NCBI RefSeq assembly: GCF_044324785.1
Contig: NZ_CP172127.1
DNA from: Escherichia coli
GTDB taxonomy: Bacteria > Pseudomonadota > Gammaproteobacteria > Enterobacterales > Enterobacteriaceae
Length of the DNA stretch: 64,000 nucleotides
Strand: one strand, 5' to 3'
This document shows, piece after piece, positions 25,685 to 34,485 of the stretch. Position 1 is the first letter of the stretch; every line of letters begins with the position of its first letter. A program made the position numbers and the translations under genes. Under the pieces are notes generated by a model. That model saw only the letters and a list, made by a program, of their open reading frames with translations, was not told where the DNA came from and did no database searches.

Positions 25685-26437
25685 TCACTGAGCTGTAATC
25701 AATGTACAGCGCTGTACCGGGCGATGGGTAATACCGGTCACAACCGGTAACCCCAGAGACAATGCAACTGTTTTTAACGCAATATACTGGCCGGATGTAT
25801 CACCCCGGGCAGCCTGAAAACACCTTTCCACCCGGCATTGTCCGTCAGCACTTATCACCCGCCATGTCTGTTGCAATAAATCCACCCGTTGCGAACATTC
25901 TTCATCAACCGTGGCACTGACCCGTGGATGGCAAATGCTCGTCTGGCTGAGCAGCAACAGGCATCGCATTGTTGCTCCTCCATGTTGTTCCCGCAACCAG
26001 CGTAATACCACCGGTGGTGCTGGACTGGCCGTGTGATTACGTTCAGTAATACGCTCGTGCACCTGTCGGTAAAAGGAAGTACAGAATGCATGAATCTGTT
26101 GTCCGTTGATGTTTCCTTCTGCCGAATGGAGTGTGAAGTGGACGGCCAGCAGACGCGGCCAGTGATCCACCGCCTGCTGAATAAAACGCCGGATTTCCAC
26201 CGGCTCTGAAAGTACGGTTTCGGTTATTTGCACGATTTGATCCCCTTGAATGTTGCTGAACCGGTGTCGGTACGCAGGAAAGCACGCCGAGACCGGTACG
26301 ATGCCTGTTACAGCGAAGAACGAGGAATGACAGACGGGGGCAGCAGGTCGCCAGCACCAGGGACAGGGCTGATTTCCACAATACCAACGCTGGTATTTTG
26401 CACATTGCCAGCGTACCGGCATTACAACACGTTTCAT
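25685..26437 (-). CDS. Hypothetical protein, start overlapping the alpA stop
   Basis: ORF with ATGA overlap to alpA; cysteine/tryptophan-rich N-terminus (MKRVVMPVRWQCAKYQRWYCGNQPCPWCW); no family recognised. Confidence 0.4.
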   Translation of the reverse strand: MKRVVMPVRWQCAKYQRWYCGNQPCPWCWRPAAPVCHSSFFAVTGIVPVSACFPAYRHRFSNIQGDQIVQITETVLSEPVEIRRFIQQAVDHWPRLLAVHFTLHSAEGNINGQQIHAFCTSFYRQVHERITERNHTASPAPPVVLRWLREQHGGATMRCLLLLSQTSICHPRVSATVDEECSQRVDLLQQTWRVISADGQCRVERCFQAARGDTSGQYIALKTVALSLGLPVVTGITHRPVQRCTLITAQ

Positions 26438-26670
26438 GCGGCGACTCCCCGTGATGCTTCGATGCGCTGCTGCATCCACTGCTCCACTTCGCTTCTGTAC
26501 CAGCGGCTGCTGCGGCCCAGTTTGATGGGTTTAGGGAAATGGCCTTCACTGATCAGCTTGTAAAACCATTTGTCGGTCATACCAGTGAAGCTGGTGATGT
26601 AGTTCATGTCGATCAGGGGATCGTCGGCACGCAGCAATACGCTGTCGTGACCTGTCATTGAGGTCAACAT
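26434..26670 (-). CDS. alpA: AlpA-family phage/island transcriptional regulator
   Basis: 78 aa; ...LIDMNYITSFTGMTDKWFYKLISEGHFPKPIKLGRSSRWYRSEVEQWM matches the AlpA HTH family. Confidence 0.8.
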   Translation of the reverse strand: MLTSMTGHDSVLLRADDPLIDMNYITSFTGMTDKWFYKLISEGHFPKPIKLGRSSRWYRSEVEQWMQQRIEASRGVAA

Positions 26671-26738
26671 GGTCAGAATGTCCTCTGTGAGATTTATGAA
26701 TGTTGGGCAAATGCGGGTGAATCTGCTGAGCTGAGCTT

Positions 26739-27311
26739 TCAGAGCTGGCCTGCTACGGGATACCAGGGATTACCGGCGAGGTAACGGGCTTCCGGATCGC
26801 GCACACCACGACGATCGCGGGCGAAATCACTGAACGCCCATATCAGCTCTTTGAGTCTCTCTTCGCAGTCCGGTGAACGGGGATCCAGCAGCACATCCCG
26901 GGTAATCTGCTTCTGGTACGGTGCCGCTTCACCCGGTGACGCGAAGCCCAGTACGTTGCTCCAGGCATCCAGAATCAGCCGATCCAGTTCAGGGCCGTCG
27001 AAATATTCCTCCCTGACGCACAGCACCACGTGGTATTCCGGTTTTTCAGGATGACGAGTCAGGAGCCAGCAGAGATCACGTCCGGGGGTTGCATTCATCA
27101 GCGCACTGACGGTTTCGATAAAGGCCATACCGAACCAGGTTTTTCTGTCGCTGAAGATGTTGCCATGTTCCCCCGGCAGACGAAGCAGGATCCGCCGTAT
27201 TCGGGAGCAGGGCTGCTCACGCAGCGCACGCTCAAGGACACCGATAACTTTGCTCTGATAAGATGGCCAGAAGGGCGCCATGCTATAGTCGAAATAAGGG
27301 ATAGCATTCAT
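26739..27311 (-). CDS. YagK/YfjJ-family protein (inovirus Gp2-type), apparently 5'-truncated relative to its paralogue
   Basis: Similar to the 27668..28399 paralogue (YHVVLCVREEYF vs YHVILLLNKDTW); the paralogue's conserved 5' leader motif lies about 160 bp upstream of this gene. Confidence 0.55.
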   Translation of the reverse strand: MNAIPYFDYSMAPFWPSYQSKVIGVLERALREQPCSRIRRILLRLPGEHGNIFSDRKTWFGMAFIETVSALMNATPGRDLCWLLTRHPEKPEYHVVLCVREEYFDGPELDRLILDAWSNVLGFASPGEAAPYQKQITRDVLLDPRSPDCEERLKELIWAFSDFARDRRGVRDPEARYLAGNPWYPVAGQL

Positions 27312-27667
27312 AAGATATGTTCCGTTATACGCAGCCCACAACGCGTCCTGCCCGTGGATGCGCTGACGTGTTATGGCTTGCGTATGGGGTTGATGGAATA
27401 AGTGAAAAACCGCGGCAGAACGGGAAGATCAGGTAACCGACAAGGGACAGAACACCGGATGCAGGTTCAGAATGAATGATCTCCGTTGACTTCGGTTCAC
27501 ATCATTAAGCAGGACAGTAAGGTTTTACCGACGGAGTGTTTCCAGGAGCGAAAGCAGAGAAAAATACCGTTGCATGACTTCAGGACGACTTTTTCAGAAA
27601 ACGAGCTAAGGGCGTCAGCCAACGTCCTGTAGCATAAGCTCAGGCACCGGATGTCGTTTTACAGGGC

Positions 27668-28399
27668 TCACCTGCCATCCAGTAGACGCCCCGGCCCACG
27701 ACTGCAACCATAATTACGTTGCCCGGAACCGTTATGCAACTTCGTTTCATATTTCACGAGATAACTGGCTCTGTTCCGGGCTTTCTGCATCGCTTCCACA
27801 TCACCACGCTTGACCCAGAGCACAGCGGATTCACCCGGCTTTTTGTCTGAAGCCTTCCTGGTATCAGAACATCCACCCGACAAAGGCGTATCATCGGAAG
27901 AAGGGCGAGCATCAGATGATGTCGGTTTACGGAAAGGCGTCCGCCTGGAAAAATGAACCAGTCCATTACCCTGCCAGGGCTCAAGATGCAGAGCACTACA
28001 CCATGCCAGCTTGATCAGTGTCGCCAGCGAAGAAGGAACGGTGAAATCCCCTGGCGAGCACCAGGTATCTTTGTTGAGCAGCAATATCACGTGATAATGT
28101 TTCCTGCCTTTTTCCTTGCCAAACTCCCGGCACCAGAAATAACGCAGAGTGGTTGCACGCACACGCTTGTTGGCACGTCGTTTTTTCCGCTGGTAAGCCT
28201 GAATTTTGGCTTTCAGGGATGCAAAAAAACGAGAAATCACCGCTGAATCCGGATCGGGATCCATGATGGTGACAGGCATATACTCAGGGAAACGTAAATC
28301 CACCCGGATTAACGAGACGGCACGGTGCTGCGCCAGGGCACTGTCGAGAAGGCTGTCAAAACGGGATAACCAGTAAGCATTATGTATTGGTTGATTCAT
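27668..28399 (-). CDS. YagK/YfjJ-family protein (inovirus Gp2-type)
   Basis: 243-aa ORF; RBS GGAG about 10 nt upstream of the ATG; family assignment from recalled CP4-type island proteins. Confidence 0.6.
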   Translation of the reverse strand: MNQPIHNAYWLSRFDSLLDSALAQHRAVSLIRVDLRFPEYMPVTIMDPDPDSAVISRFFASLKAKIQAYQRKKRRANKRVRATTLRYFWCREFGKEKGRKHYHVILLLNKDTWCSPGDFTVPSSLATLIKLAWCSALHLEPWQGNGLVHFSRRTPFRKPTSSDARPSSDDTPLSGGCSDTRKASDKKPGESAVLWVKRGDVEAMQKARNRASYLVKYETKLHNGSGQRNYGCSRGPGRLLDGR

Positions 28400-29319
28400 G
28401 ATGAGAGATCTCCGTTGATTTGGATTGACTTCACATCATTAATCACCGCAGTAAAACTTTACGGCGTCCTGTCATTAAGCAACACCAGTGGCTCCTGATT
28501 AGAACAGAATGAGTTTCCCACGAACAAAAAGACAAACCTACACGCAGGGTAAAAACACGCAACAACAGCATGAATGGATTTGAAAACAATATGGATGACG
28601 AAAAATGTCAAAAGTGAAACGGATCAACAGAACGTGCAAACAAAACGTCAGAAACGCAATCAGAGCACTTTCTGGCGCTGTGAATCAACAACAACACCAA
28701 AACCTACAGCTTAACCACATTACTCAATCACGAATGCGAATGACACGTTTAAAACCTGTTTACAGATAACGCCGTAACACGATCATCCCCATCACCATCA
28801 GAATCGATTTTCTCATCCCGAAAATGTTACGTTTCACTACGCACCATAAAAACGATTAACCATCGATAACGTAAATCTCATCTGAATCAAAAAACCAAAA
28901 CCAATCATCACACTTTCGCAATGCAAGAAGAAAAACCACATCATGACGAAAACAATGACCTTACATGAAAAAGCAAAACGTCAGGAATCGTTAATGCCTC
29001 AATCTGATTGTTATCAAAACATCCAGAAAGTCGTTTAACAGAATCGTCGTAAGCACATCGAAAAGAACGTCAGATCACCTCAGGAAAGTTCGGGTTGATT
29101 TAGCGTAAAGATACTTTTCTCAGCTTAACGTCGAAACACAAACCAAAAACCACAAACAACCAAAGCTCAGGAAAGGTTAAACGTCACATCAGTAAAATCG
29201 AATAGCAGATTGATTGCTTAAACAGAAAGGTTTTACAGCAGCTTTAAACTGATTTTAGCTAACGTAAAGATTTACTAAACTGGATGAGTTTCAGACAAAG
29301 CAATGTGTACAGCAATGCT

Positions 29320-29500
29320 TAATGAAAACACTTATAGGGCTGTTTATGAAAACACGTGTATGTCTGGTAAAACACTTAGTAGAAAATACGTGTATAACAC
29401 TTACTGAAATGCTTAGTAAAAATACTTAGTAAAATATGTGTAGAATTATCTATTTAAAAAGATATGTATATAACACTTAATAAAAACATGTGTATATAGT
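29320..29500 (+). repeat. Cluster of at least 7 degenerate 11-bp direct repeats (AAAA[CT]A[CT][GT]T[AG][TG]); iteron-like
   Basis: aaaacacttat, aaaacacgtgt, aaaacacttag, aaaatacgtgt, aaaatacttag, aaaatatgtgt, aaaacatgtgt within about 180 bp of an ORF-free AT-rich stretch. Confidence 0.6.
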
Positions 29501-30138
29501 ATCATACCGACATTCTCAACATCTTCAGACTTCCATACATACTGGGTGTTGATTTCTCACTTTTACAGCCAGCATGGAGTTTTCTGTCCTAAAAACAGAG
29601 CAGATTTACTCTGGAATTATTTTTCTGCCCCCGTATTTCAGGCCCCAGAAAAGACAATCCGAAGCAAACCGTTTGTCAGCCTCCATATCATCTTTTACCC
29701 CCGGAAAGTGATCGCGTTTTACAACCAGAATGACAGCCATACTGATTATGTCGTCTCCCGGCCCCCTTCACATATAACATGCATGTCTGTCATTGCTTAC
29801 TGCTCCACATGACCGGATTTCACATACAGGATGCACATTCAGTGTTTTTATCGCCACTATAACAGACAGATTACTGTCGTCTTTACTCTTCAGATTGTTA
29901 ATCTGACCACAAGAACAGCCGAACGGCAAAACGCCCTCCACAAGGGGCACATGAACCATAGTTGATAGCATGTTTTTCCTAATCAAGGAATAGTTCAGGA
30001 ATATTTTATTGCATTAATAACTGGCGAATAATCGTTCTGTGAACACAAAATGCTTTTATTTGTAAATTTTATTGCATTGCACTCGTTTTATTGATATGGG
30101 GTTTAATAACAGATAACCCGGAAAGAAGGAGAAAACAG

Positions 30139-30930
30139 ATGACATTACGGATTAACGATCAGGGGCGAGATAAACAGAATCAATTTTTATCGAAAAATGG
30201 AGAAAATCTGAATTCGTTAAAATCGCGTCATGTGCAGGATAGGCATTTACCTGAATGGCTTAAGGATAAAGTTGCAGCATTCTGGTTTTGTCTGGTGATA
30301 AAGGATATGAAAGTGTCAGGGAGCAGTTACTATGAACTTACCATGCAACTTCCCACTTCTGAAGAATCTGTTTGCATCAGTAAGCTGTCATCCTCAACCC
30401 ATGAGATTCGGCTGGAGATCATCAGGCGATGGATTGATAGTGTAGCACAGATAGAAACGGAAGCTTTTACTAAAAATCTCGTTGATGCCATCTATAAAAA
30501 CTGGAAGGAAATCGGGAACAAAAACCAGGCTACATGGCTTAAAAAAAATCCGGAACAACTCGAGTGGGCATGGAAATATATTAACATTCGTATTCCCGAG
30601 TCACATTTAACCTGGTTTTGCCCCGTCAATAACGAAGAGAAACGCATTGCCATCTTAGCATTGCTTAAAATACTGTATCCCGGAGATATACCATGCCAGT
30701 ACAACGACAAAGAGTTTCATGTCGGGATCTGCGCTGAAGAACATTTTTACAGAAGAATGCACGACGCTTTCAGAAAACAGTTTATCGACGGGAAAAAAGA
30801 TAAACGGGTACAAATTAACGTAAAGATATCACCGTCCGCAAAAAGCGCTCTGGACAGACTGACCAGAGCGAGGAAAACAACACAGCAGGCTATTCTGGAA
30901 CAACTGATTCTGAACGGTAGACTGGATTAA
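30139..30930 (+). CDS. Hypothetical protein (263 aa), possible ribbon-helix-helix-like C-terminus
   Basis: RBS AAGGAG 8 nt before the ATG at 30139; no recognisable catalytic motif; C-terminal ...KISPSAKSALDRLTRARKTTQQAILEQLI. Confidence 0.5.
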   Translation: MTLRINDQGRDKQNQFLSKNGENLNSLKSRHVQDRHLPEWLKDKVAAFWFCLVIKDMKVSGSSYYELTMQLPTSEESVCISKLSSSTHEIRLEIIRRWIDSVAQIETEAFTKNLVDAIYKNWKEIGNKNQATWLKKNPEQLEWAWKYINIRIPESHLTWFCPVNNEEKRIAILALLKILYPGDIPCQYNDKEFHVGICAEEHFYRRMHDAFRKQFIDGKKDKRVQINVKISPSAKSALDRLTRARKTTQQAILEQLILNGRLD

Positions 30931-31928
30931 CTTTCACTACTTCCACTCCTGGCAGTTTTCCTCTTTTTGTAGTGTCTCCCGGCTGCAGGCATCAGGTACT
31001 TTTCCGTCATTTCGTTGCAGAACTCTTCAATGTAGTTAATCAGCTTCTGGTGTGCTTTCACCTTTTCTTCCCCGGGGGACGCTTTCAGATAAATGTCCTC
31101 CTTTTCCACAAGTGTATTTATAAACTCTCCCGGACATCCCTGGTTATAAAGCAACGTGAAAAACAACACATTCCCCAGTCTCTCCAGTAACTGCGATTTA
31201 ACCCTGTATTGTTGTTTGCTGAGGATTGATTGTTTTATAAAGCTTAGTCTTGTTAAAAGTTGTTCAAATCCCGGTTCCAGTTTAAAAACAGATTTTAATA
31301 CCAGGGACTGATACTCCTGATAAAAAAGTTCAAACGTCGGGGATGCAGACTGACGAACAGATTTGGCTACAACCCATGGACTAAATCCCATGATTGGGAT
31401 TTCCTTCGCTCCCTCCAGCGCACTCAGAGGTAGTCCAGCAATCCATGCGTCCAGCTTAGCCGAATCAATATCCCCGCTCAAAACCTCATACAAACTGCCC
31501 GTGAACGGTTGAGTCGGTTTTTTTGTTGTTTTACCTTCTGATTGCCTGAATCCATCCACTTTTCTCCGGATATTACGCGGAATCAGCATAAAAGGCGGGA
31601 CATTAAGTGATAAACGTTTACCCGTCATACGATACCAGTGGCCCACCTCAACCTTAATCCGTGTATCTGGCCTTGTATCTGGCCTTGTATCTGGCCTTAG
31701 CTCAAGTGCTATTATGTTAAGCAGGTACAGATAACGCACCGTATAACAGTCAAAATGTTTCTCCGGATCAAACGGCTCTGATCGTTCTCTGCACACAAGT
31801 CCGCTGCGCTTCAGTATTCGCTGGGTATCTTTCCAGGCCTTACTCTGAAGAATGGTGGTAACTCTGGCTTTATTAGCAATCTCACGCAGCGCATCACTTT
31901 GTTGTGCCGTCATCTCTTCCCTCCACAC
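30927..31928 (-). CDS. Hypothetical protein (333 aa) with internal (TRPD)x3 repeat, divergent from the YfjP-like GTPase gene
   Basis: ORF convergent with the previous gene (stop codons overlap); in-frame 12-bp tandem repeat; no family recognised. Confidence 0.5.
   Translation of the reverse strand: MWREEMTAQQSDALREIANKARVTTILQSKAWKDTQRILKRSGLVCRERSEPFDPEKHFDCYTVRYLYLLNIIALELRPDTRPDTRPDTRIKVEVGHWYRMTGKRLSLNVPPFMLIPRNIRRKVDGFRQSEGKTTKKPTQPFTGSLYEVLSGDIDSAKLDAWIAGLPLSALEGAKEIPIMGFSPWVVAKSVRQSASPTFELFYQEYQSLVLKSVFKLEPGFEQLLTRLSFIKQSILSKQQYRVKSQLLERLGNVLFFTLLYNQGCPGEFINTLVEKEDIYLKASPGEEKVKAHQKLINYIEEFCNEMTEKYLMPAAGRHYKKRKTARSGSSES
31663..31698 (+). repeat. 12-bp perfect tandem repeat x3 (GTATCTGGCCTT), in-frame within the 333-aa gene
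   Basis: Three identical units encoding RPDTRPDTRPDTR on the minus strand. Confidence 0.9.
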
Positions 31929-32019
31929 TTTGTCACTCCAGATTTTTTCACGTCCATATTACCTGAATGATAAACCGGATTAGTGTGATCCGGTTCAGCG
32001 AAATCAACAGGATACCGGT

Positions 32020-32904
32020 ATGTCATTCAGCCATTCTTCCCTCTCTGCACAAGTGAAATCATATCTGACGTTTCTTCCTGAAGAAATTCGCCAGAAAATC
32101 CTTGAACATCTCCACGGTGTTATTCATTACGAGCCCGTGATTGGCATTATGGGTAAATCCGGCACAGGCAAAAGCAGCCTGTGTAATGCCATTTTTCAGT
32201 CCCATATCTGCGCCACGCATCCCCTGAACGGCTGCACCCGCCAGGCTCATCACCTCACCCTGCAGATCGGTGAACGCAGAATGACGCTGGTCGATCTGCC
32301 CGGCATTGGTGAGACACCGCAGCATGATCAGGAATACCGGGCACTTTATCATCAGTTGCTACCGGAACTGGATCTGATTATCTGGATCCTGCGGGCTGAT
32401 GAACGTGCGTATGCTGCCGATATTGCCATGCATCAGTTTTTACTGAATGAAGATGCCGATCCCTCGCGTTTTCTGTTTGTTCTCAGCCATGCCGATCGCG
32501 TGTTTCCTGCTGAAGAATGGAACGACACAGAAAAATGCCCGTCCCGTCAGCAGGAACTCTCACTGGCGACAGTAACAGCCCGGGTGGCCACCCTGTTCCC
32601 GTCATCATTTCCGGTACTCTCCGTTGCAGCGCCTGTCGGCTGGAATCTTCAGGCACTGGTGTCACTGATGATCCACGCACTGCCACCACAGGCAACCAGC
32701 GCGGTTTATTCGCATATCCGGAATGAAAAGCGCACTGCGCAGGATCAGCAACACGCACAGCAGGCTTTTGGTGACGCCATCGGCCAGAGTTTTGACGCTG
32801 CCATTGCCCGGTTCAGCTTTCCGGCCTGGATGCTGCAGCTTCTGCGCAAAGCCCGTGATCGCATTATCCGCCTGCTGATCACACTGTGGGATCGCCTGTT
32901 CTGA
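32020..32904 (+). CDS. YfjP/YeeP/YkfA-family GTPase (50S ribosome-binding GTPase domain)
   Basis: P-loop GIMGKSGTGKSSLCNAIF, then DLPGIGE (G3); conserved first gene of the CP4-type island terminal module. Confidence 0.8.
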   Translation: MSFSHSSLSAQVKSYLTFLPEEIRQKILEHLHGVIHYEPVIGIMGKSGTGKSSLCNAIFQSHICATHPLNGCTRQAHHLTLQIGERRMTLVDLPGIGETPQHDQEYRALYHQLLPELDLIIWILRADERAYAADIAMHQFLLNEDADPSRFLFVLSHADRVFPAEEWNDTEKCPSRQQELSLATVTARVATLFPSSFPVLSVAAPVGWNLQALVSLMIHALPPQATSAVYSHIRNEKRTAQDQQHAQQAFGDAIGQSFDAAIARFSFPAWMLQLLRKARDRIIRLLITLWDRLF

Positions 32905-33013
32905 ATGTCCCCGCTTTTTGACCGGCCCCGGCGATAACCAGGAAACGCATTTCCGGTTGCGTCACCACAATGCTGAAGGGCTTCGGTAAACCCTCATTCA
33001 TTTCATCCATCAG

Positions 33014-33044
33014 GCCGCGTCTTCTCCGTGAGACGCGGCTTTTT
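33014..33044 (+). terminator. Intrinsic terminator after the GTPase gene
   Basis: GCCGCGTCT-tctccgtg-AGACGCGGC followed by TTTTTC. Confidence 0.55.
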
Positions 33045-33089
33045 CATTGATTACGTCATTCAGTCTTAACCACTGATAAGGAGCAAAGT

Positions 33090-33908
33090 ATGCGATTAGC
33101 CAGTCGTTTTGGTTATGCGAACCAGATACGCCGTGACCGTCCGCTGACCCGTGAAGAGCTGATGCACCATGTGCCCGGGATTTTCGGGGAAGATAAACAC
33201 ACCTCCCGGAGCCGGAACTATACATACATCCCCACCATCACCGTGCTGGAAAGCCTGCAGCGGGAAGGCTTTCAGCCATTCTTCGCCTGCCAGACCCGCG
33301 TACGTGACCCGGGCCGCCGGGGGTATACCAAACACATGCTGCGTCTGCGCCGTGACGGGGAGATAAACGGACAACATGTCCCTGAAATCATCCTGCTGAA
33401 CTCCCATGACGGTACCTCCAGCTACCAGATGCTGCCGGGTTACTTCAGGTTCGTCTGCCAGAACGGATGCGTCTGCGGTCAGTCTCTGGGGGAAGTGCGT
33501 GTTCCGCACCGGGGAAATGTGGTGGACAGAGTCATTGAAGGGGCTTACGAGGTGGTGGGCGTGTTTGACCGGATAGAGGAGAAGCGTGATGCCATGCAGT
33601 CGCTGGTCCTGCCGCCACCGGCACGCCAGGCGCTGGCACAGGCGGCACTGACTTACCGTTATGGTGACGAACATCAGCCCGTCACCACCGCCGACATTCT
33701 GACACCACGACGCCGGGAGGATTACGGTAAGGACCTGTGGAGTGCTTATCAGACCATCCAGGAGAATATGCTGAAAGGCGGGATTTCCGGTCGCAGTGCA
33801 AAAGGAAAACGTATCCATACCCGGGCCATTCACAGCATTGATACCGATATAAAACTCAACCGCGCATTGTGGGTGATGGCAGAAACGCTGCTGGAGAGCA
33901 TGCGCTGA
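33090..33908 (+). CDS. DUF932-family protein (YfjQ-like)
   Basis: 272 aa; position and size match the YfjQ slot of CP4-type islands; recalled similarity only. Confidence 0.7.
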   Translation: MRLASRFGYANQIRRDRPLTREELMHHVPGIFGEDKHTSRSRNYTYIPTITVLESLQREGFQPFFACQTRVRDPGRRGYTKHMLRLRRDGEINGQHVPEIILLNSHDGTSSYQMLPGYFRFVCQNGCVCGQSLGEVRVPHRGNVVDRVIEGAYEVVGVFDRIEEKRDAMQSLVLPPPARQALAQAALTYRYGDEHQPVTTADILTPRRREDYGKDLWSAYQTIQENMLKGGISGRSAKGKRIHTRAIHSIDTDIKLNRALWVMAETLLESMR

Positions 33909-33999
33909 TGCTGTTTCCCTGAAAGTGCAGCCCTGACTCACGTCTGTACCAGTCCCCAGGCATTCTTCCATTCATTTACTTTTTATAAGGAATCATCTC

Positions 34000-34485
34000 A
34001 TGACAACCTTTTCGCATAGCTCCACCACACCTTCTGTTTCCGTAACTACTGCATCAGGGAATAACCAGTCTCAACTGGTTGCCACTCCCGTCCCTGATGA
34101 ACAGCGCATCAGCTTCTGGCCGCAGCATTTTGGCCTCATTCCACAGTGGGTGACCCTGGAGCCCCGTGTCTTCGGCTGGATGGACCGTCTGTGCGAAGAC
34201 TACTGCGGTGGTATCTGGAATCTGTACACCCTGAACAACGGCGGGGCATTTATGGCCCCCGAACCGGATGATGATGATGACGAAACATGGGTACTGTTCA
34301 ATGCCATGAACGGTAACCGCGCTGAAATGAGCCCGGAAGCCGCCGGCATTGCTGCCTGTCTGATGACGTACAGTCATCACGCCTGCCGTACGGAGTGTTA
34401 TGCCATGACGGTTCATTATTACCGTCTGCGGGATTACGCCCTGCAGCATCCGGAATGCAGCGCCATTATGCGCATCATTGACTGA
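34000..34485 (+). CDS. Antirestriction protein (ArdB/KlcA-like; YfjX/YafX family)
   Basis: 161 aa with acidic stretch PEPDDDDDETW and ...GGIWNLYTLNNGGAFMAPE, typical of KlcA/ArdB-like island proteins. Confidence 0.7.
   Translation: MTTFSHSSTTPSVSVTTASGNNQSQLVATPVPDEQRISFWPQHFGLIPQWVTLEPRVFGWMDRLCEDYCGGIWNLYTLNNGGAFMAPEPDDDDDETWVLFNAMNGNRAEMSPEAAGIAACLMTYSHHACRTECYAMTVHYYRLRDYALQHPECSAIMRIID

Follow-up and report, generated by a model that had tools for sequence, protein, structure and literature searches.

The 64,000-nucleotide stretch of Escherichia coli DNA analysed here (contig NZ_CP172127.1 of assembly GCF_044324785.1), in the following called the window, carries a chromosomal island of the CP4-57/SRL type. 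Between the two arms of this island lie two convergent genes coding for proteins of 263 and 328 amino acids (aa). Both are genuine genes encoding conserved proteins under selection, and together they are a conserved backbone module and not incidental filler beside the neighbouring GTPase gene. The reading we favour, at somewhat less than an even chance, is that the pair would be a regulatory cassette of the island backbone, consisting of a ribbon-helix-helix (RHH) repressor and a co-inherited partner. The coordinates of the pair are:

30139..30930, + strand: gene for the 263-aa protein (ATG at 30139, TAA stop at 30928-30930)
30802..30915, + strand: RHH-like segment of this protein, aa 222-259 (weak Pfam and NCBIfam matches, strand pattern kept in relatives)
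30927..31913, - strand: gene for the 328-aa protein (start ATG at 31913-31911, stop at 30927-30929)

The original prediction, made from the letters of the window, had described two sizeable genes with overlapping stop codons. The coordinates of the open reading frames (ORFs) agree with this: the genes are convergent and their ends overlap by 4 nucleotides (nt), TTAA, in which the stop bases are shared. The predicted length of 263 aa on the + strand stands. The 333 aa given for the - strand gene counted from an in-frame GTG at 31928; the likely start is the ATG at 31913, which has GGAGG 6 nt before it and gives 328 aa. The 263-aa gene has the Shine-Dalgarno sequence AAGGAG 7 nt before its ATG at 30139. 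In the RefSeq annotation, read from a strain 100% identical across 30000-32000, both coding sequences are labelled 'hypothetical protein' (WP_000175256.1 for the 263-aa and WP_029396404.1 for the 328-aa protein).

Many full-length homologues exist, so neither ORF is a product of chance. A collection of 5.8 billion proteins contains 67 homologue clusters of the 328-aa protein, nearly all from Escherichia, and a filter-free hidden Markov model (HMM) search of 1.84 billion cluster representatives gave 50 matches to its family, about 17 of them full-length at 22-32% identity. The exact 263-aa sequence is carried by at least 1000 contigs, and its family extends to 21-29% identity in the loci examined. 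Among 5426 complete E. coli genomes searched by megablast the 328-aa gene was found in 742 and the 263-aa gene in 347, and the exact pair (at least 80% of the 2-kb query) in 62. A profile search of genome contigs added one further locus, in Hafnia alvei. A tblastn search with the 328-aa protein gave nothing in the phage collection and matches to only 2 plasmids.

The two genes are strictly paired. Each 328-aa homologue with a readable neighbourhood has a 263-aa homologue directly downstream on the opposite strand, and this holds down to 22-30% identity; the loci covered are L002-L009 from E. coli and the metagenomic L010-L013 and L016-L019. The orientation is convergent in all eight independent locus types examined, the genes either share 4 bp at their 3' ends or end no more than about 120 bp apart, and the homology of the partner genes was confirmed by hmmsearch. 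The position is kept as well. The left arm of the island, transcribed leftwards, contains AlpA, a 200-aa ORF and a YfjJ-like gene of the 'inovirus Gp2 family' (27668-28399); the right arm, transcribed rightwards, contains a YfjP-like GTPase gene (32020-32904) followed by DUF932, antirestriction, RadC, DUF987 and YeeU/CbtA toxin-antitoxin genes. Because both the pairing and the position between the AlpA/YfjJ-like and the GTPase arms are retained down to 22-30% identity, we take the pair, on this comparison of loci, to be island backbone and not cargo. The strain AR_0085 (NZ_CP029741.1) has the same cassette on two islands, L020 (2908763-2915086) and L021 (1324769-1338918); in one of them IS1414 sits exactly at the gene junction, and in the other ISCro1 (IS66-family) truncates the 263-aa gene at its 5' end, the 328-aa gene being intact.

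The 263-aa protein is basic (pI 9.25) and soluble, with a Trp-rich helical N-domain (aa 1 to about 215) followed by the RHH-like segment. The original prediction of a possible RHH-like end finds its counterpart in weak but recurrent matches to RHH_1 and RepB-RCR_reg. Pfam RHH_1 (PF01402) gives E=0.065 with the full protein and E=0.0096 with the last 90 aa, and RepB-RCR_reg (PF10723) gives E=0.037 on the last 90 aa; all of these are weak. NCBIfam PRK13702, the IncFII RepA2/CopB regulator, matches with E=0.057 and 13.4 bits against a cut-off of 87, and in the distant L016 relative with E=0.0016 and 18.5 bits against the same cut-off. RHH_1 is found at E<=0.1 in 5 of 12 diverged relatives and at <=0.001 in none of the 12, and several relatives have precomputed PF10723 matches flagged weak or faint.

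The segment consists of a strand, K-R-V-Q-I-N-V-K-I-S, followed by the helices PSAKSALDRLTRA and TTQQAILEQLIL, which is the layout that RHH_1 demands: an alternating hydrophobic/polar strand and two helices of about 12 residues. KRVQINVKIS-PSAKSALDRLTRA-RKTT-QQAILEQLIL is conserved across the family alignment (A5), and the Q-x-N-x-K strand pattern is preserved in L010, L016 and L018, in relatives which are 22-24% identical overall. An AlphaFold2 model, built from a shallow alignment and mediocre (pLDDT 63), is all-helical and places helices at 232-245 and 249-258. When aligned by hhalign the segment falls in register with Arc, with Prob 0.45% and thus with no statistical support. The recurrence of weak matches together with a strand-helix-helix pattern kept in relatives of 22-24% identity suggests that the 263-aa protein is probably an RHH DNA-binding protein. 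Membership of a specific RHH family does not follow, the PF10723 and PRK13702 cut-offs not being reached; beyond the weak RHH matches, sequence and profile searches of Pfam, NCBIfam, PHROGs, PADLOC and PDB gave no named family. With up to 10 distant relatives of each of the two proteins as queries, Pfam, NCBIfam, PHROGs and PADLOC likewise yielded nothing beyond sub-threshold matches of RHH type. A Foldseek search of AFDB50 with the 263-aa model returned solely uncharacterised relatives, from Salmonella, Yersinia, Psychrobacter, Acinetobacter and Vibrio.

The partner is an orphan protein, basic and probably mostly helical. It is soluble and cytoplasmic with a pI of 9.55, and the basic pI of both proteins (9.3 and 9.6) is compatible with nucleic-acid binding, which it does not prove. 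Its N-terminal half is conserved, with the motifs S.AW.NTQ..LKRSG, HLY.L, IVP..IRRKAD.F.Q and GSLY, and its C-terminal half is a mosaic; W27, Q31, K118, L141, Y142, E200 and F252 are invariant in the family. The original prediction had recognised no catalytic motif in either protein, which agrees with the lack of a named domain in Pfam, NCBIfam, PHROGs, PADLOC and PDB. Foldseek against AFDB50 with the 328-aa model returned solely uncharacterised E. coli relatives. Two comparisons by hhalign also came out negative: no relation was detected between the 328-aa family (A3) and the 263-aa family (A5), nor between the 328-aa family and K-12 YfjH (318 aa, CP4-57).

The pair differs from its surroundings in how fast it changes. 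Between E. coli islands the backbone proteins (YfjJ-like, GTPase, DUF932) are 86-97% identical, whereas the N-domain of the RHH protein is 21-42% and its RHH segment 42-75% identical; in the 328-aa protein the values are 40-93% for the C-terminal half and 83-92% for the N-terminal half. The variable block thus comprises the 263-aa gene and, next to it, the C-terminal half of the 328-aa gene. Two explanations agree with this pattern, co-evolution of interaction surfaces and allelic replacement of a contiguous piece of DNA, which are inseparable owing to the physical linkage. As an analogy, mobile elements that are otherwise alike diverge in a comparable way in their regulatory or 'immunity' regions. 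The GC content is also lower in the pair, 0.41 and 0.45 (0.44-0.45 at third codon positions, GC3), versus 0.54 for the GTPase gene (GC3 0.56) and a GC3 of 0.66 for DUF932.

The flanking non-coding DNA contains the following features:

28400-30138: ORF-poor stretch of 1.74 kb with no annotated gene, between the YfjJ-like gene and the 263-aa gene
29319-29500: iteron-like array, AT-rich (GC about 0.30), about ten units of 12-13 bp
30003-30015 and 30066-30078, + strand: ATTTTATTGCATT in two exact direct copies of 13 nt, 61-136 nt before the start of the 263-aa gene
31914..32019: divergent spacer of 106 bp between the 328-aa gene and the GTPase gene

In the majority of loci the 328-aa gene is divergent from a YfjP-like GTPase gene, and the spacer between them has a length of 100-106 bp in L002, L006, L010 and L013. 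It contains a box, TCACGTCCATATTACC / TCACGYCYATATTACC, at 31948-31963, which is invariant in the alignment, and a hairpin or palindrome, AACCGGAT-N7-ATCCGGTT, at 31973-31995, the arms of which are kept with altered sequence in L010 and L013. Box and hairpin are thus retained, with compensatory changes in the arms, in loci where the proteins are about 25-55% identical. The spacer probably holds back-to-back or overlapping divergent promoters and a structure in the 5' untranslated region of the GTPase operon. The direct repeats ATTTTATTGCATT are candidate operator or promoter elements, and TTATTGCATT is also present upstream of the partner gene in L002. The hexamer GCATGT occurs 8 times in eight 300-nt regions upstream of RHH genes, against 0.9 expected; GCATGT/TTGCAT was chosen post hoc among about 2000 hexamers, and its enrichment is a lead only. 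An Rfam scan of 26000-34000 found no RNA family, and scans for promoters and terminators gave nothing above shuffle expectation and no terminator-like site between the two genes. On the far side of the GTPase gene, between it and the DUF932 gene, L002-L009 have one or two extra proteins of about 225 aa without a Pfam family, plus DUF905, and WYL in L010, none of which is present in the window; this interval marks a second variable slot of the backbone.

With these elements the favoured regulatory cassette can be formulated as follows. The 263-aa protein would be a two-domain DNA-binding protein in which a fast-evolving Trp-rich helical N-domain is joined to an RHH of the Arc/CopG type. By binding repeats in the flanking non-coding DNA it would repress promoters of the island, either its own, those of the backbone arms or both. 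Its co-inherited partner, the 328-aa protein, would act as co-regulator or antagonist of the RHH protein. The 328-aa gene and the GTPase operon would share the fixed bidirectional control region of about 100 bp, and the terminator-less tail-to-tail arrangement may couple the expression of the two genes through convergent read-through. What suggests this reading is the strict co-occurrence and convergence of the genes from 100% down to 22-30% identity, the fixed backbone position with a spacer of 100-106 bp containing a conserved box and hairpin, and the recurrent RHH signal, whose best, though weak, matches are the replicon copy-control repressors RepB-RCR_reg and IncFII RepA2/CopB. Consistent with it are also the basic and soluble nature of both proteins, the 13-nt direct repeat upstream of the RHH gene, the (post hoc) enrichment of GCATGT, the absence of a terminator between the genes, and a divergence of the pair far above that of the backbone.

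A number of observations weigh against this reading. All the RHH matches of the 263-aa family are below the family thresholds of Pfam and NCBIfam, and for the 328-aa family Pfam, NCBIfam, PHROG, PADLOC and PDB gave no relative with a known function, whether searched with the protein of the window or with distant relatives. The AlphaFold2 models, based on shallow alignments, are poor (pLDDT 46 for the 328-aa protein, an unusable model at 45.8, and 63 for the 263-aa protein) and give no structural support. Very divergent relatives share the Q-x-N-x-K strand while the N-domain diversifies, so the residues that would read DNA show no evident specificity peculiar to each island. The genome of AR_0085 contains two identical copies of the cassette. 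An HMM search of the CP4-57 region of K-12 found neither family, so the pair is not indispensable to islands of this kind. Finally, the regulatory steps and the DNA targets of the RHH protein are a proposal derived from sequence.

The 328-aa gene also contains a repeat:

31662..31698, - strand: tandem repeat of 12 bp, 3.1 copies (Tandem Repeats Finder, TRF: period 12, 100% matches, score 74)

The original prediction of a perfect in-frame repeat of three 12-bp units is borne out by this TRF result. On the coding strand it reads AGG CCA GAT ACA three times and then CGG, that is RPDT-RPDT-RPDT-R. The repeat follows just behind the conserved YLYLLN motif, where conservation is poor and the sequence varies in length and composition among distant relatives. 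These relatives have no repeat at this place. In E. coli a single unit is found in most alleles (REDTR, KPDTR, KSDTR, RPDTR) and two units in two sub-lineages (RPDTRPDTR, RSDTRPDTR), and the window has three. The suggestion that the site might be length-variable proved correct, as 1, 2 or 3 copies occur on otherwise identical alleles: the protein of the window (3 copies), P0156 (2 copies, 411 contigs) and P0162 (1 copy, 3 contigs) have no mismatches outside the repeat. Among complete genomes with identical flanks 50 have 3 copies and 4 have 2. Alleles of 1, 2 and 3 copies that are otherwise identical in protein sequence indicate, in this comparison, that slippage at the site is recent and recurrent; the 50 genomes against 4 indicate that the copy number is mostly stably inherited. 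Neither protein has clear homology to a characterised family, and the frames are intact in relatives which differ in copy number; the points which could have spoken against the original prediction thus turned out in its favour.

It could be argued that the repeat is a contingency switch, of phase or antigenic type, which rapidly toggles the function of the 328-aa protein. The otherwise identical alleles, which make the repeat the fastest-changing site of the gene, speak for it. We consider it very improbable: a 12-bp unit keeps the frame, the range is just 1-3 copies, and the presence of exactly 3 copies in 50 genomes from varied hosts, versus 2 in 4, suggests mostly clonal inheritance. Furthermore, single-copy alleles make up most of the family and the repeat is missing from distant relatives, and the protein is cytoplasmic and basic and not a surface antigen. 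Copy-number change did not emerge as a switch of expression through frame or promoter spacing, every allele being in frame as a result of the 12-bp unit. The repeat is therefore a length-polymorphic insertion in a poorly conserved stretch and not a phase-variation switch; in the regulatory cassette it would be a slippage-prone insertion whose length changes, all in frame, tune the protein at most.

The ORF-poor stretch to the left of the 263-aa gene brings in another explanation. The original prediction had placed the pair between an A-rich ORF-free stretch and a YfjP-like GTPase gene, and this is where it lies, with 28400-30138 on one side and 32020-32904 on the other. The part from about 28400 to 29400 is A-rich and G-poor, with an AT skew up to 0.42, a GC skew down to -0.40 and a GC content of 0.30-0.41, and an ORF-poor gap of 1-1.9 kb is retained at the same place in L002, L006 and L016. 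In the array at 29319-29500 units resembling AAAACACTTAGTA alternate with units resembling AAAATACGTGTAT (TRF: 29369-29434, period 13, 5.2 copies). Arrays of the TACTTAGTAAAA type are also present in the E. coli islands L006 (8443-8490) and L002 (8782-8820) and were not detected in the distant loci L013 and L016. In its sequence the array appears iteron- or centromere-like.

Such a region may suggest that the pair is an accessory module of an origin. The RHH protein would then be a copy-control repressor (CopG/CopB) or a relaxosome factor in a position like that of TraY/MobC, its target an ori or oriT within the 1.7-kb ORF-poor region, and the 328-aa protein a further replisome or relaxosome factor. 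The best weak matches of the RHH segment are indeed to replication-regulatory families, the 263-aa gene is divergent from a Rep_ORF2-G2P/YagK_YfjJ_C gene across the conserved ORF-poor region, and the AT-rich array within this region is also conserved in the islands L006 and L002; the right arm (DUF932, KlcA-type antirestriction, DUF905) presumably resembles the leading-region genes of plasmids. However, the array has the same sequence in L002 although the RHH strand differs there (Q-S-L instead of Q-N-K), it was not detected in L013 or L016, and no relaxase or nick site was identified. In the strain GF60 an IS3-family element is inserted in the ORF-poor stretch, and replication or transfer of the island is in this case a supposition. 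We consider an origin module an unlikely explanation.

The K-12 chromosome leads to a third explanation. In its CP4-57 island (L014, NC_000913.3 2753000-2777000) the slot between yfjJ and yfjP is occupied by abpB/abpA, yfjM and rnlA/rnlB; AbpAB and RnlAB are known anti-phage systems. The same backbone position can therefore hold either the cassette or defence cargo. The pair might itself be a toxin-antitoxin, abortive-infection or other anti-phage module with the RHH protein as antitoxin or sensor and the 328-aa protein as effector. RHH domains are common in antitoxins. A rapid diversification of the pair in a conserved backbone is compatible with an arms race, and the occupants of the K-12 slot point the same way. 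In one metagenomic lineage (L016/L017, 1-6341) a five-gene cluster replaces the GTPase side of the pair; it codes for a 1011-aa ATPase of the HerA/VirB4/'P-loop_TraG' kind and for proteins of 209, 285, 199 and 860 aa without an NCBIfam match. This cluster could be a conjugation remnant or a defence cluster, and a HerA/VirB4-like ATPase cluster adjoining the pair may be counted for a role in defence.

Against this stands the result that PADLOC-DB 2.0 contains no family for either protein, and 10 distant relatives gave one chance-level match, to Cas11 (E=0.026). No toxin family was found for the 328-aa family in Pfam, NCBIfam, PADLOC or PDB. The genes are convergent at all loci and not co-transcribed as the genes of a type II toxin-antitoxin system are, and at identities as low as 22-30% the pair still accompanies the backbone, in contrast to exchangeable defence cargo. 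In AR_0085 a 5'-truncated RHH gene is found beside an intact 328-aa gene, though the same genome has a second, intact RHH gene. We regard a defence module of this kind as slightly less probable than an origin module.

A broader formulation, to which we also give only an outside chance, is that the pair is an unrecognised control or conflict module of mobile elements, a convergently transcribed switch which would time the backbone arms, or else a new two-gene anti-phage system. Specificity would then reside in the surfaces of two regions, the fast-diversifying N-domain of the RHH protein and, in the 328-aa protein, the C-terminal half. If true, such a module would decide when islands common in E. 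coli and Shigella activate their Rep-like/AlpA arm and their GTPase/antirestriction/toxin-antitoxin arm. A large proportion of E. coli and Shigella genomes contain islands of this type, which bear adhesins, resistance genes, toxin-antitoxin and anti-phage systems. The control of their backbone genes is poorly understood, and a conserved, rapidly diversifying pair with a probable DNA-binding domain, located between both arms, is a testable candidate for this control.

The pair adds two protein families, neither of which has a Pfam family of its own. Literature searches by accession, by the names of neighbouring genes and by topic found no study of either gene; SEN1998 of ROD21, which was considered, is a recombination directionality factor unrelated to the pair. 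No counterpart of the pair as a unit has been described; it would combine a probable RHH regulator whose N-domain is novel with a partner that is an orphan.

Several known systems can be compared with the pair. The small repressors of the CopG/RepB-RCR_reg/CopB type have a length of 45-86 aa. The likeness to CopG/RepB-RCR_reg (PF10723), IncFII CopB (PRK13702) and Arc/MetJ lies in the C-terminal 40 aa or so of the 263-aa protein, with its strand-helix-helix, the V-Q-I-N-V-K-I-S strand and polar residues before helix 2; furthermore the gene neighbours a Rep-like gene, and the weak matches fall on these families. The differences are that the 263-aa family scores 13-18 bits against the 87 of PRK13702, that the protein has two domains, the N-terminal one of about 215 aa and without an assigned fold, and that its gene is not part of a rep operon, being separated by 1.7 kb from the divergent YfjJ-like gene and paired with a convergent orphan gene.

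ParG and ParR are RHH proteins acting on arrays of short direct repeats. Here the likeness is positional only: the 263-aa gene is preceded, at a distance of 640-820 bp, by an array of repeats of about 12-13 bp, and the pair has an NTPase (GTPase) gene as its neighbour. In contrast to these systems the pair has no partner of the ParA/ParM/TubZ type, and the array does not co-vary with the RHH strand. In HicB-type antitoxins a large N-terminal domain precedes an RHH at the C-terminus, and the 263-aa protein has its domains in this order too; the pair differs by having no homology to HicB or HicA, a convergent neighbour gene and no detected toxin family.

A counterpart in position is found in Shigella. 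Orf42-orf45 of the SRL island, described as hypothetical with 'no similarity' and with no function reported, are located between the YfjJ-like/Vis(AlpA)-like genes and the YfjP/YeeP-like GTPase gene (PMC6980539). This is the island position of the pair, and orf42-orf45, compared by position alone, are probably the same cassette.

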